From assembly GCA_964645485.1 (NCBI GenBank), contig CAZXZO010000018.1:17723-41497 (forward strand): a DNA stretch of 23,775 bases. Direction: 5' to 3'. This document shows positions 18,822 to 23,775 of the stretch, piece after piece. Position 1 is the stretch's first letter, and each line of letters begins with the position of its first letter. A model generated the notes under the pieces. It was not told where the DNA came from and did not search any database. It worked only from the letters and a program-made list of their open reading frames with translations. The translations under genes and the position numbers were made by a program. Source of the stretch: an uncultured Candidatus Poseidoniales archaeon. GTDB lineage: Archaea; Thermoplasmatota; Poseidoniia; Poseidoniales; Thalassarchaeaceae.

Positions 18822-19985
18822 TCAATCAAGTTCATCAATATCTTTCAAAGCCGGAGCGGCAGAACCACCCGGCGCACTTCCAACACCAGGTTCTAGAATT
18901 GTATCATCCTCTTCTTTCCCCAAAACATCTCGTCTTGCTTTGGTTTGTTCATGTGCTCTCAAAACACCCAGAGAATCTTGGAATGCCCCACTAACGACTC
19001 CCCTTGTTCTTTCTGATTTACGTAAGCCATCAACCTCAGCAGCCATTCTTTCATGTACTTCTTCTAAACTCTTTAACTCAGCAGTTCGGTCTGATAAACC
19101 ACCTTCAATATCACTGATGGTTAGCTGCATTTGTTGGATTCTTTCGTCTCTTTCAAATACGTCTCTATGTAATCTTCTCTCTCTTCTTCGTAGAGCCTCA
19201 TATTCTCTATTTCTCTCAAGTAATCTACGTTTTAATTCTTCAATTTGTTCGACAAGGTAATCATGTTCTGCGGAAATAGAACGTGGCCCGTCCATCATTC
19301 TCTGCATTTGCCCATCTAACTCTTTGAGGCGAAGATCCCTTTGTTCAAGCAAAGATTTTGTTTGAGTTACCATTTCTCGAAGTTTGTCTCTTTCTTCTGA
19401 AACAGTATTATTTTCAATCTGTTCTGCTTCTATTTTCCGATGAGCATCTTCCAGTTCACGGTTCAAATTTCGGACTTCATCAGCAGTGATTGAAGTTAAA
19501 CCCGCTTCCGCTGCTTTCTCCAATGCCTCTACCAATTGGTCTAACTTTCCTTCTAATTCACCTATGATGTTTGCTTGTGATTCAACTTTTTCTGAAAGTT
19601 GACCCTCATTACGTTCTAATTCATCTATTCTAATTGCTCCGACAGAGTTAGAAATCGCTTCTTTTTCTCTTTTTATGTCATCAAGCATTCTTTCAAGATG
19701 GATAATTCTTGCTTCCCGTTCCCGTAAATCCTCATCTAATTTCATCAATCGTGCCCTATCGGGCGCGCCCAATTCCTCGCGTTCTGATAAATCGAGTTCC
19801 ATAACCCGGTTTCTTTGATTTGAACTTGCTAATTCTTTGTTTGCCGAAGCCAACTCTTCCCAGGCAGTAATTACTTCATCAACAAGTTGTTCTTGTCCAT
19901 ATCCTGACAACATACCTGCCAGTGCAGCGCGGTCCACATCATCTCTAGAAGTGGCTTTTCCATTAGTGGTCTCAGCTCGCCCCAT
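18822..19985 (-). CDS. Long coiled-coil protein with short head and acidic, Gly/Pro-rich tail
   Basis: E/R/L/K-rich heptad-like sequence over ~280 aa; no Walker motif or TM segment visible; start ATG 19985 or TTG 19991. Confidence 0.85.
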   Translation of the reverse strand: MGRAETTNGKATSRDDVDRAALAGMLSGYGQEQLVDEVITAWEELASANKELASSNQRNRVMELDLSEREELGAPDRARLMKLDEDLREREARIIHLERMLDDIKREKEAISNSVGAIRIDELERNEGQLSEKVESQANIIGELEGKLDQLVEALEKAAEAGLTSITADEVRNLNRELEDAHRKIEAEQIENNTVSEERDKLREMVTQTKSLLEQRDLRLKELDGQMQRMMDGPRSISAEHDYLVEQIEELKRRLLERNREYEALRRRERRLHRDVFERDERIQQMQLTISDIEGGLSDRTAELKSLEEVHERMAAEVDGLRKSERTRGVVSGAFQDSLGVLRAHEQTKARRDVLGKEEDDTILEPGVGSAPGGSAAPALKDIDELD

Positions 19986-20015
19986 GCTCAATCAAACACC
20001 CTATCGCAAGAGGAC

Positions 20016-20066
20016 CATTCTTGAACCTTCACCTTGTCACTAGTCAAAGCAAGTCATTCTTGAACC
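20016..20066 (-). repeat. 12-bp direct repeat CATTCTTGAACC (20016-20027, 20055-20066); possible tandem promoter or operator
   Basis: Both copies read directly in the 100-bp gap between the actin stop and the coiled-coil start. Confidence 0.6.
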
Positions 20067-20090
20067 CTTTTCTGGGCCACCAAATCACCC

Positions 20091-21095
20091 TCAACTAATT
20101 GCAGTGTACTGGTCATCAGGCATTACCATTGACAGTTTTAATGCCCCATCTGCAACTCTTGCCATTGGATCATCAGCACACCAAACACGAACATCACCAA
20201 TATCTGCTAGTTCATCAGCCACACGGTCTGCCAAACCATCGATTAAGGAGCCGCCACCTGAAAGAATTATGTTATTTCGTAGCAATGATTGATACTCTGG
20301 GTCAGCATCAGAAACAATTCCTTTTATTGTCCTTACGAGATGAGGAACTAACTCCTCACAAGCGATTTGAATCAAGTCGCCGACATCAACAACTTGCTTC
20401 TTTCCATCTACTGAAAGTTCGACCATCTGTTCTTTTTCATCTCCACCAACATATGAACCCGCTTCTTTCCATTGACGGACCATGTCTTTTGTTAGTTGAG
20501 CACCTGTGAATTTCTTTGCAACTAATTCCATTAATCGCTCATCAATCCAATCTCCAGCTTCGCTGATTGTAACTTGGTCATCTTCACTAGGGAATGTACC
20601 GTAGATTCGAGCAACATCGGTTGTACCTGCACCAATATCAACAACAATACTACCACCAATTTCATCAAGACCAAATGCGACTGCAAATGGTTCGCTAACA
20701 ACCATAATTGCATTTACCTGGCCTCTTAGAACGCTGACCAAATTACTCTTGTCAACGAATGAAATGTGAGATGGTGAGCATATTACACCGAAAACCTCGT
20801 CGTATTCTTCAGGGTCAACCGCTTCAACCAAGTGTGTCACAAACGATTTTGCTGCTGCCAAATTATTTTCATCATCTTGGGCAACTCCTGCTGAAAGTGG
20901 ATAATATAGATTACATGCTAATTTATTTTTCAGCGCATCTCCGCCAAACAAGGTATCTCTTTTCAAGAAATTACGAGCGATAGGATCCTTAGGTTTTCCA
21001 ACCACTGTTAATACACTTTCATTCGTTCCATTCGACGCAGCAATTGTCGATTGAAATGTTCCTAAATCTATTCCGATGTACAGTCTTTCACTCAT
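20091..21095 (-). CDS. Actin-fold ATPase of the MamK/salactin type
   Basis: Phosphate-1 GIDLGT, connect-1 VSEPFAVA, phosphate-2 VDIGAGTTD, adenosine LSGGGSLIDGL; SD AGGTGA (21101-21106) supports ATG 21095. Confidence 0.92.
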   Translation of the reverse strand: MSERLYIGIDLGTFQSTIAASNGTNESVLTVVGKPKDPIARNFLKRDTLFGGDALKNKLACNLYYPLSAGVAQDDENNLAAAKSFVTHLVEAVDPEEYDEVFGVICSPSHISFVDKSNLVSVLRGQVNAIMVVSEPFAVAFGLDEIGGSIVVDIGAGTTDVARIYGTFPSEDDQVTISEAGDWIDERLMELVAKKFTGAQLTKDMVRQWKEAGSYVGGDEKEQMVELSVDGKKQVVDVGDLIQIACEELVPHLVRTIKGIVSDADPEYQSLLRNNIILSGGGSLIDGLADRVADELADIGDVRVWCADDPMARVADGALKLSMVMPDDQYTAIS

Positions 21096-23547
21096 AGTCG
21101 TCACCTACACGCGGTGCTACCGCTATCGGCAGGGAGTCGCTATCATGGTTTGAAGGTTCACCTTCGGTAATAATTTCATCAACCACTATTTGAGAAGAAA
21201 TTTTATGCCTCTCAACTAGGATTAATCCAGCTGAAATTAATATTATTATAGCCATCATAATGAACCAATATTTACCTAGAGAATCGTCACCCTGCTCCCC
21301 ATTTCCATTCTCATTTAGGGATACTACTAACCACGGGGTGCTTGTTTCAACAGAACTTCTCTCAACACCCTTCACCGCTAATGCAAATCCAATTCTATCA
21401 CCATTCAACCCAACTCCACCTTTCTCAGGCCCGATGTTTATTTGATGAGCGAGAATTTGAACTTCAACAAATCCAATTCCATCAAGATTTGCCGACGGAA
21501 TATGGACGCCTTCGATAGTCTCAATATTTTCTTTCACCCCTTCTCCAGTCATATCATTGCCTAAGAAGATTTGACCATCAGGTAAAGTTACGACGAGATC
21601 TAAATCATCGCGTGAATCAATATTAGGGGCAGAGTTCCAAACAAGCCTAACATCGAAATCAACACCAGGAACAATTGGCATTTTCCAAACCACACTTTCT
21701 GATGATGACAAGAATGGCCCAGCAGCCCCTGCTCCTCCCCAATTATGATTAGAGACTGAATCAAGCGGGTTTTCATCAACCCAATCATCAATCATACTTT
21801 TCCAGTTGTTGTCAATCAATTGGAATGAATCATGTATCCAAATATTTGCTGATGGGTCAACTGTAGAATTATTCATTTGGTTATTGATATAAGCAAAATC
21901 AACTAGGTTGGATAGATTTGGCCGCCCCCATCCTTGTTGGTTATCTGGTGCTACCCCAAGGGTCAACTCTGCTTGCCGCCCTCCTTCAAGTGAGTTAGCA
22001 CTCAATACCATCAACGCCCTGATAAGTGGGCCTGACGGAGTAAACCCTTGAGCCAAAGAGAGATTTCCTTCACTCAAATTTCCTTCAACCGATTCTGCCC
22101 AATCAGGCCTTAATGAATTCGAAGAAACAATATTTTTGCTTTCATTTCCTCCAACCCAACCATCTTCCACCATTTGTTGTATAACAGCAGCGAATGCTGC
22201 TGCTTGTGGAGTCGCCATCGAAGTTCCCGTCGAACTCTTCCAGCCATCATTATTAGAATCATGAACACCATCTCCTTTAGCCGAAATCACTGTTTCGCCA
22301 GGGACAACAATAGTGACTCCCAATCTCCCTTGAGCAGTTTCTTGTCTTGGAGAGAGAGTCCACAAATCATCAGTCCCATCTTTAGCGGCGGCACCAACAG
22401 AAACAACATTCAATCCATTTGCAGGTTCCAAAACCTCATCTCCCGTGTTTCCCGGAGCAACAAAAGAAACCGACCAAGGTACTGAAAATAACCAAGTATC
22501 AAATTTACTTGTCCGAAGCGTGTATTCTGTACTATCATCCCCCCAAGAATCTGAGCGTATTACACTACCATGTGAACTAGCTTCCCAAAATAATTCACCA
22601 ATATCGGGTATTTGCCAACCATCATCATCTACAACATCTTCAATCACCAGACGAGCCCCATGGGCAATTGAAGTTCCTTCTCCAGGAGTTGCGTTTGTCC
22701 AATCACCATTTCTTTCTGAGGAAACTTCCCAAATTGAACGACAAGCCAAACTCCCCGCTATGTGAGTTCCATGTTGATAATTTTGATTATTTGGTGAATC
22801 CCAATCATCTATTGTTCCATTGAAATAAACAATTTTTCTATGATTTATCCCCGGTGTGCCTGTTGCATTATTCCATTCACTTCCTGAAGCCCCTGGTTCA
22901 GTAGCCTCACGGAAGCAAGCATGGTCGCGGTCAATTCCTGAATCCGCGTTAGTAATTATTACTCCAGTTCCATCCAATCCAAACAACCAAGCGGGTTGCC
23001 CAGTAACATTTCCGTGTTGCATTATTGCTGCCGCAACATCATTTCTTCCCACTGTTTCTAGCACCGGTTCAACCCAATGTATGCCGTGTATAATTTCAAC
23101 AAATTGCCACCAATTTTCAAAATCATTACTTGGTGTGATTTGAATTATTTCCGAGAGAGGTGATCCCTGCATCGGTGAGAAAATTGTAATTGGATTCAAA
23201 CCAATCATATTCAAGACAGTTTTAATTTCCTCCTTTTCATTCACTTCTAATCTTGGTTCAAGAATAACGATGTAATTTTGATATTCATCATTCAAACCCC
23301 TATATTCAGCAATTTTTTGGGGTATTTCATCTTTATCAATAGGTCCCCAGACTAGCATTTCATTAGCACTTAATTGACGTAAAGGAATAAATCCCTCTTC
23401 CACTAAATCGTGCCAATTATCTACATCCAATGGGGTATCAGACTGAAATATTACTTCGCCAAATTCTTGTTGTTCAGTATGTGGCATTGGTGGAAGTGGG
23501 AATATGAAAAACACTGCAAGAAAAACAACACTAGCCCCCCTCGCCAT
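21088..23547 (-). CDS. Secreted, C-terminally membrane-anchored S8 subtilisin-like protease (Kp43-like)
   Basis: N-terminal hydrophobic signal; triad ADSGID / HGTHIAGS / GTSMATP, oxyanion APGN; LVWN...DDLDLVV C-terminal domain; TM helix YWFIMMAIIILISAGLILV; SD GGAGGTGA at 23555-23562. Confidence 0.93.
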   Translation of the reverse strand: MARGASVVFLAVFFIFPLPPMPHTEQQEFGEVIFQSDTPLDVDNWHDLVEEGFIPLRQLSANEMLVWGPIDKDEIPQKIAEYRGLNDEYQNYIVILEPRLEVNEKEEIKTVLNMIGLNPITIFSPMQGSPLSEIIQITPSNDFENWWQFVEIIHGIHWVEPVLETVGRNDVAAAIMQHGNVTGQPAWLFGLDGTGVIITNADSGIDRDHACFREATEPGASGSEWNNATGTPGINHRKIVYFNGTIDDWDSPNNQNYQHGTHIAGSLACRSIWEVSSERNGDWTNATPGEGTSIAHGARLVIEDVVDDDGWQIPDIGELFWEASSHGSVIRSDSWGDDSTEYTLRTSKFDTWLFSVPWSVSFVAPGNTGDEVLEPANGLNVVSVGAAAKDGTDDLWTLSPRQETAQGRLGVTIVVPGETVISAKGDGVHDSNNDGWKSSTGTSMATPQAAAFAAVIQQMVEDGWVGGNESKNIVSSNSLRPDWAESVEGNLSEGNLSLAQGFTPSGPLIRALMVLSANSLEGGRQAELTLGVAPDNQQGWGRPNLSNLVDFAYINNQMNNSTVDPSANIWIHDSFQLIDNNWKSMIDDWVDENPLDSVSNHNWGGAGAAGPFLSSSESVVWKMPIVPGVDFDVRLVWNSAPNIDSRDDLDLVVTLPDGQIFLGNDMTGEGVKENIETIEGVHIPSANLDGIGFVEVQILAHQINIGPEKGGVGLNGDRIGFALAVKGVERSSVETSTPWLVVSLNENGNGEQGDDSLGKYWFIMMAIIILISAGLILVERHKISSQIVVDEIITEGEPSNHDSDSLPIAVAPRVGDDYE

Positions 23548-23569
23548 GATTTTGTCACCTCCCGTCGCG

Positions 23570-23576
23570 TTTAAGA
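23570..23576 (+). promoter_or_regulatory. TATA-like box for the ribosomal protein LX gene (probably leaderless)
   Basis: TTTAAGA lies 24-30 nt upstream of ATG 23600, with no clear SD in between. Confidence 0.45.
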
Positions 23577-23599
23577 CGACAACCCAAGTCGGCGGCTCA

Positions 23600-23775
23600 A
23601 TGAAGGCTTATCGAGTAGTGGGTAAATTCCCCAATGGAAAAGTAATCCAACAATTTTCACAAGACGTGGTGGCTAATGATGAAGATGAAGCAAGGCATCG
23701 AGTTGAATCATCATTTGGGAGCAGGCACAGAGTCAGCCGCCGAGCAATCAAAATTGCAAGTATCGAACAGATTGA
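23600..23775 (+). CDS. rpl18a: 50S ribosomal protein L18Ae/LX, truncated by the window end (not in the ORF track)
   Basis: My translation: MKAYRVVGKFPNGKVIQQFSQDVVANDEDEARHRVESSFGSRHRVSRRAIKIASIEQI, matching the LX pattern (A..E.EA...V.S..GS.H.V.R..I.I). Confidence 0.9.
   Translation, partial: MKAYRVVGKFPNGKVIQQFSQDVVANDEDEARHRVESSFGSRHRVSRRAIKIASIEQI

Follow-up and report, generated by a model that had tools for sequence, protein, structure and literature searches.

The window analysed here, 23,775 nucleotides (nt) from an uncultured archaeon of the Thalassarchaeaceae (Marine Group IIb, MGIIb; order Poseidoniales), carries three consecutive genes on its minus strand. From open reading frames (ORFs), profile matches and a structure model these are assigned to a membrane-anchored S8 subtilase, a MamK-like actin and a coiled-coil rod protein. 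We lean, with some confidence, towards the view that the actin and the coiled-coil protein are a co-regulated cytoskeletal pair specific to the Poseidoniales and that the protease is a passenger. We favour this view because actin and coiled-coil protein are conserved throughout the order, because their genes share a motif and the actin leader has a hairpin with compensatory changes, because one clade has jointly lost components at two unlinked loci, and because the actin resembles MamK far more closely than any other protein of solved structure. An earlier reading, made from the sequence only, had recognised the three genes and proposed that they form a three-part system of surface protease, actin and coiled-coil scaffold. 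The actin/coiled-coil pair of that proposal is supported by our results, whereas the protease is most likely only a neighbour. In the literature searched we found no description of such an actin/coiled-coil module, nor of Poseidoniales cell biology at this level.

The MamK-like actin and its second paralog

Among proteins of solved structure the actin is closest to MamK (5JYG/5LJV; 225 bits, E 1e-65), followed by BeeR (134 bits) and MreB (54 bits), so that the assignment made in the sequence-only reading holds. The match to the NCBIfam MamK model (NF040964) extends over profile positions 1-329 of 335 with 337.2 bits (E 9.5e-101), a score that is below the curated cut-off of 400; the scores with the other NCBIfam models are 207 for BeeR, 79 for MreB and only 16.8 bits for ParM. 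The nucleotide-binding motifs of the actin fold, namely GIDLGT for phosphate 1, DIGAGTTD for phosphate 2 and SGGGS for adenosine, are invariant in the order-wide alignment, and identity among the Poseidoniales actins is 65-98%. With such a sequence the protein would be expected to polymerise into filaments of the MamK type.

In magnetotactic bacteria the partners of MamK are MamJ, MamY and McaA/McaB, and Desulfovibrio magneticus has coiled-coil Mad proteins (PMC12748827). The Poseidoniales locus resembles the MamK system in that its actin is closest to MamK in sequence, along the full length of the NCBIfam model, and in that a filament gene is paired with a gene for an acidic or coiled-coil partner. 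It differs from that system in that the actin stays under the curated cut-off, the coiled-coil partner has no homology to known adaptors and the host is a planktonic archaeon. Moreover, no magnetosome genes are found in the window, the only part of the genome examined for mam genes; the actin gene is surrounded there by those for L18Ae, the S8 protease, the coiled-coil protein, GGGPS and other housekeeping proteins. Salactin, which has been placed nearest to MamK (PMC10746226), and volactin are archaeal actin-fold proteins too, but the actin of the window matches the corresponding Pfam families weakly (Salactin, 39.5 bits; Volactin, 31.9 bits, below its cut-off). It lacks the N-terminal charged tail of salactin, which its closest relatives beyond the Poseidoniales do have.

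The same genome encodes on another contig a second actin paralog that is 47% identical to the first. In this region (L038:6654-8803; genome G000, contig C7) the actin gene is always preceded by that of a 349-residue protein, which has zinc-ribbon-like cysteine pairs at its N- and C-terminus and belongs to no Pfam family. The zinc-ribbon gene adjoins actin 2 in all five genomes checked, which come from two families, and actin 2 together with this neighbour likely is part of the same system as the pair in the window. In the complete genome G026 the second paralog is found in two adjacent pieces (C1:1175450-1176447), which points to a frameshift or a sequencing error. As to the 3' side of the actin gene, many lineages (L051-L063, L071, L095 and others) have a GC-rich stem-loop just behind the stop codon, for example GGACCCCATAGGGGTCC or GCAGACCCCTAGGGGGTCTG. 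Its sequence differs between lineages and it is weak in this window; it may mark the end of the transcript or a site of processing.

The coiled-coil rod protein

The AlphaFold2 model of the coiled-coil protein (mean predicted local distance difference test score, pLDDT, of 82.6) shows three long helices spanning residues 31-160, 168-232 and 237-355 and, behind them, a disordered linker that leads to a short C-terminal peptide. Both breaks between the rod helices are conserved (AGLTSIT and EGPRS), and so is the acidic C-terminal peptide (PGG.A.PAL.DIDEL); over the whole alignment conservation is strongest in the central and C-terminal region. By means of these highly conserved parts the rod protein might bundle, anchor or regulate the actin filaments. 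A segmented α-helical coiled-coil rod with short conserved linkers at two breaks is reminiscent of crescentin and intermediate filament (IF)-like proteins. The Poseidoniales rod differs from them, however, in that it has no sequence or fold match to a described family, since it finds no match in Pfam or among PDB sequences and a Foldseek search of the model against the PDB returned nothing similar. Its homologues are named only 'hypothetical' or 'chromosome segregation ATPase'.

A motif shared by the two genes

The actin leader aligns almost gap-free in 76 distinct leaders over the whole order and has the same arrangement throughout, with a core TGAACCTT at about -66 to -59, then a small hairpin, the Shine-Dalgarno (SD) sequence and the ATG. 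With at most one mismatch the core is present in 52 of the 76 leaders as compared to 3% of shuffles. The hairpin positions are paired in 87% of cells versus 29-56% with slid partners, and two of the pairs show compensatory changes. Ahead of every coiled-coil gene lies the reverse complement of the actin-leader motif, AAGGTTCA, which at the same tolerance is found in 76 of 76 distinct upstream regions (5% of shuffles); the reverse complement of the core, AAGGTTCAAG, is placed at about -38 from the gene. For both genes the distance between motif and start codon is fixed, and these two sites are the only copies of the motif in this genome that stand just upstream of substantial genes. Upstream of the protease gene the motif is absent. 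The output of a genome-wide search for a promoter consensus was dominated by the SD signal.

That the actin and coiled-coil genes have separate leaders and one 8-nt element in common (TGAACCTT / AAGGTTCA) suggests that they are probably co-regulated and do not form a strict operon. The idea of the sequence-only reading that the coiled-coil gene may have its own promoter thus stands insofar as the gene has its own conserved upstream element, which, judged by sequence, may be a promoter, an operator or an RNA feature. The ACCUU within the motif could also pair with the AAGGU of the SD sequence.

Distribution of the system and its loss in one clade

Both actin paralogs are present in all 50 sampled Poseidoniaceae and in 8 of 25 sampled Thalassarchaeaceae. 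Genera of the latter family with small genomes (1.3-1.6 Mb, 88-97% complete) lack both. On the GGGPS tree the genomes without actin form one clade (support 98/93), and we therefore assume one lineage-level loss. At the orthologous site of these genomes L18Ae is followed by a 164-residue ORF and then by GGGPS. The ORF is intact and matches only the N-terminal ~160 residues of the coiled-coil protein, AAGGTTCAAG is still ahead of it, so that the upstream motif is retained even in genomes without actin, and it is the C-terminal two thirds of the protein that are missing from this streamlined clade. The zinc-ribbon protein was retained in none of the five genomes of the clade that were checked, and no orthologue of the protease was found elsewhere in the actin-less genomes. 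Deletions at two unlinked loci thus point to actin 1, actin 2, the zinc-ribbon protein and the C-terminal part of the coiled-coil protein as a functional set; a single contiguous deletion could have removed the protease along with actin 1. Since one streamlined lineage has dropped the system, it must be regarded as dispensable.

Both paralogs also occur in 1 of 43 genomes of a sister family in the class, but this copy (G098:C38:1048-2055) is 87% identical to that of the present genus and probably lies on a misbinned contig. A further locus contig, L107, is filed under 'Candidatus Microthrix' and looks misbinned as well. The apparent absence of genes in G024 was traced to a contig break beside GGGPS and is not a loss. 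We also rejected a link to motility, as the genera g1, g3 and g11 have actin but no archaellin, while g16 has archaellin but no actin.

The S8 protease and the layout of the locus

The protease is a member of the S8 family: it matches Peptidase_S8 (PF00082) at residues 193-473 with 79.5 bits (gathering cut-off 21.8) and has the catalytic motifs DSG, HGT and GTSMA near residues 202, 259 and 441, respectively. The triad motifs are retained in most orthologues. An N-terminal signal-like hydrophobic helix precedes the catalytic domain, which is followed by a C-terminal beta domain, a hydrophobic (transmembrane) helix at about residues 760-778 and a 41-residue acidic tail starting with ERHK. The closest solved structures, KP-43 and SubHal (PDB 1WMD, 5FAX), likewise combine an S8 catalytic domain with a C-terminal beta domain. 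Different from these, the Poseidoniales protease adds a C-terminal transmembrane anchor, which is retained in every orthologue, and in this genus only the 41-residue tail. Such a protein would be an extracellular feeding protease that is inherited in the same syntenic block as the pair. One orthologue, at locus L095 (same genome as L016), has 448 residues and lacks the GTSxA serine motif while retaining the transmembrane helix and a short tail; by pattern search the motif is also missing in the orthologues of L096, L101 and L105.

In this window the protease stop and the actin start overlap by 8 nt (ATGAGTGA, 21095-21088), and the actin SD sequence, GGTGA at 21105-21101, is located 5 nt ahead of the ATG within the final protease codons. 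The sequence-only reading had described both features correctly and had taken them to imply translational coupling. This implication does not hold up, because the overlap, which a translationally coupled operon would keep among orthologous loci, is limited to 10 loci, all from this genus and its nearest kin, whereas 49 of 62 loci have a spacer of 40-200 nt between protease and actin. The acidic cytoplasmic tail that it had predicted behind the C-terminal helix is present too, but is confined to the genus and its nearest kin: across the orthologues tail length varies from 4 to 54 residues, with 4-8 residues in many lineages and no common motif. Among members of the genus the final 72 nt of the protease gene have 76% nucleotide identity as compared to 51% for the preceding 600 nt, and the invariant columns of this stretch are spread evenly over the codon positions (11, 13 and 9 of 23). 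For this reason the conservation of the tail looks like a constraint on the nucleotides of the actin leader and not on the protein. The leader is read through in frame, the protease residues GEPSNH being encoded by GGTGAACCTTCAAACCAT. In this genus, then, the protease frame would have been extended through the actin leader, and the overlap as well as the acidic tail would be by-products of this read-through. The locus thereby illustrates that an upstream frame reading through a conserved leader is enough to produce both a short cytoplasmic "tail" and an apparent signal of "translational coupling".

The coordinates of all features are compiled in Table 1. At the other end of the protease gene, its start and that of L18Ae diverge with only ~53 nt between them (23548-23600 of the window, the true L18Ae ATG being near 23601), and the two promoters must therefore overlap or sit in the neighbouring gene.

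Table 1. Features of the locus in window coordinates; the last row refers to an actin-less relative
Feature	Position	Strand	Remarks
S8 subtilase gene	21088..23547	minus	819 aa; TGA at 21090-21088
Actin leader, conserved 5' region	21096..21165	minus	inside the last ~23 protease codons here
Leader motif TGAACCTTCA	21160-21151	minus	
Leader hairpin GCGG-TAGCA-CCGC	21123-21111	minus	
MamK-like actin gene, paralog 1	20091..21095	minus	ATG 21095-21093, 334 aa; ORF spans 20091-21104
Actin/coiled-coil spacer	19992..20090	minus	holds motif copies
Second, partial motif copy GGTTCAAGAATG	20066-20055	minus	
Motif AAGGTGAAGGTTCAAGAATGG upstream of the coiled-coil gene	20035-20015	minus	
Coiled-coil rod gene	18822..19985	minus	387 aa from ATG 19985, product on record; ORF 18822-19991
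ORF of 164 aa, N-terminal part of the coiled-coil protein	L120:7952-8446		also in L121, L122, L126-L128

Synteny within the order and relatives outside it

The gene order on which the sequence-only reading was built is kept beyond close relatives. Of 30 loci from three families, 29 have the succession of protease, actin and coiled-coil gene, and the same holds for nearly all of another 80 Poseidoniales contigs. In one further genome an insert of 8.4 kb separates the actin from the coiled-coil gene. In these loci, however, L18Ae is also kept, running divergently from the protease gene, and on the other side GGGPS and a GGR-like gene are oriented towards the coiled-coil gene. As these unrelated flanks are equally syntenic, synteny cannot separate function from inheritance.

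Outside the order MamK-like actins with 38-45% identity were found in 7 of about 200 sampled genomes of other Thermoplasmatota. There, the actin gene is preceded by a gene for a DNA ligase, an Ig/LTD surface protein or an Rce1-like protein and is often followed by one for a coiled-coil protein that is not homologous to the Poseidoniales rod, homology having been rejected on an hhalign probability of 0.1%. The nearest representatives outside the order (40-45% identity) often are extended at the N-terminus by long disordered or coiled-coil stretches and not by protease domains, and no S8-actin (Rosetta-stone) fusion is found among 1.84 billion representatives, in which the long forms have extensions of this same kind. 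In one close relative outside the Poseidoniales (L124:6001-12322) two MamK-like actins, one of them with a disordered or coiled-coil N-terminal extension of 375 residues, stand in tandem and are followed by three Roadblock/LC7 genes and one for a small Ras/Arf-like GTPase. In another Thermoplasmatota family and one metagenome contig (L125, L140, L141) the MamK-like actin is located inside a chemotaxis operon with the order CheA, CheD, actin, an unknown protein of 320-340 residues and CheC.

Taken together, the spacer in most loci, the short tails without a shared motif, the nucleotide-level constraint on the tail, the equally syntenic flanks and the non-protease genes upstream of the actins of other Thermoplasmatota lead us to regard the protease as a conserved, long-standing neighbour that is probably not part of the module. 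The caveat of the sequence-only reading, that the link to the protease could be incidental, hence is the better reading.

Alternative explanations

Several observations weigh against a dedicated pair with a passenger protease. Unrelated genes, among them a plastocyanin-like gene, a methyltransferase gene and another S8 gene, part the actin from the coiled-coil gene in at least 8 lineages, so that the pairing needs no adjacency and is only putative. The loss in the streamlined clade counts as a single evolutionary event. Since a 164-residue version of the rod protein survives there together with its motif, the N-terminal half of the protein may have a role that is independent of actin. The folding energy of the leader hairpin is no better than that of shuffles (mean z-score of -0.14 over 76 leaders, not significant), and it is by the pair counts alone that the hairpin is supported. 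Finally, the protease/actin junction is uninterrupted in 56 clean loci, unlike the other junctions: gaps of more than 300 nt occur in 1 of 57 cases, a locus containing Ns, as compared to 3 of 49 between L18Ae and protease, 7 of 79 between actin and coiled-coil gene and 22 of 59 between coiled-coil gene and GGGPS. This tight junction is the only positive hint that the protease belongs to the module, and together with the joint loss of protease and actin it leaves room for a real link.

But could the three genes simply be unrelated neighbours, held together by slow genome rearrangement, with the shared motif being a coincidence or an ordinary promoter element? The syntenic housekeeping flanks, the insertions between actin and coiled-coil gene and the persistence of the N-terminal coiled-coil part without actin would all fit. 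Against this, the same 8-mer stands upstream of both genes order-wide, and in this genome it precedes no substantial gene besides them. In addition, exactly the clade that has lost both actins is also without the C-terminal two thirds of the coiled-coil protein, which are strongly conserved. We thus consider this explanation unlikely. Somewhat less likely still is that actin and coiled-coil protein are a DNA segregation machine of the ParM or Alp7 type, acting on the chromosome or a mobile element. Actin-like filaments plus an adaptor are the standard design of type II segregation, and there are weak Pfam matches to the Alp7A C-terminal domain, albeit only in the related long forms and not in this actin. 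The genes, however, belong to the chromosomal core and are part of a housekeeping block order-wide, the ParM score is low, the coiled-coil protein has no recognisable DNA-binding domain, and no array of centromere-like repeats was noticed in the vicinity of the genes, where repeats were not searched systematically.

The least probable of the explanations is the one closest to the sequence-only reading, in which the protease is tethered through its cytoplasmic tail to actin filaments, with the coiled-coil protein as scaffold, and surface proteolytic sites are positioned in this way. The tightness of the protease/actin junction, the invariable presence of the transmembrane helix, the loss of the protease along with actin and a P-F motif with an acidic end in several Poseidoniaceae protease tails speak for such tethering. 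Yet a tail of 4-8 residues, as in many orthologues, would be hard to reconcile with it, the long tail of this genus results from read-through of the leader, the overlap is limited to the genus, and protease and actin may have disappeared in one contiguous deletion; neither a fusion of the two proteins nor the shared motif upstream of the protease gene lends support. Nor do we think it at all probable that the intact junction reflects a real coupling, by which actin/coiled-coil filaments organise the membrane-anchored surface protease or other envelope complexes. If true, it would mean that the most abundant planktonic archaea have a cytoskeleton-positioned site of extracellular digestion.

Conclusions

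Few archaea of the surface ocean are as abundant as the Poseidoniales, which are still uncultured. Our work indicates that the actin/coiled-coil pair is a real conserved module of this order, and we suggest that its role may be in the control of cell shape or size, or in internal positioning. With its two actins, their dedicated partners and a private regulatory motif, this conserved system offers a concrete entry into the cell organisation of the Poseidoniales. Moreover, since all 50 sampled Poseidoniaceae have the system and one streamlined clade of the Thalassarchaeaceae is without it, the order itself provides a natural with-and-without comparison.

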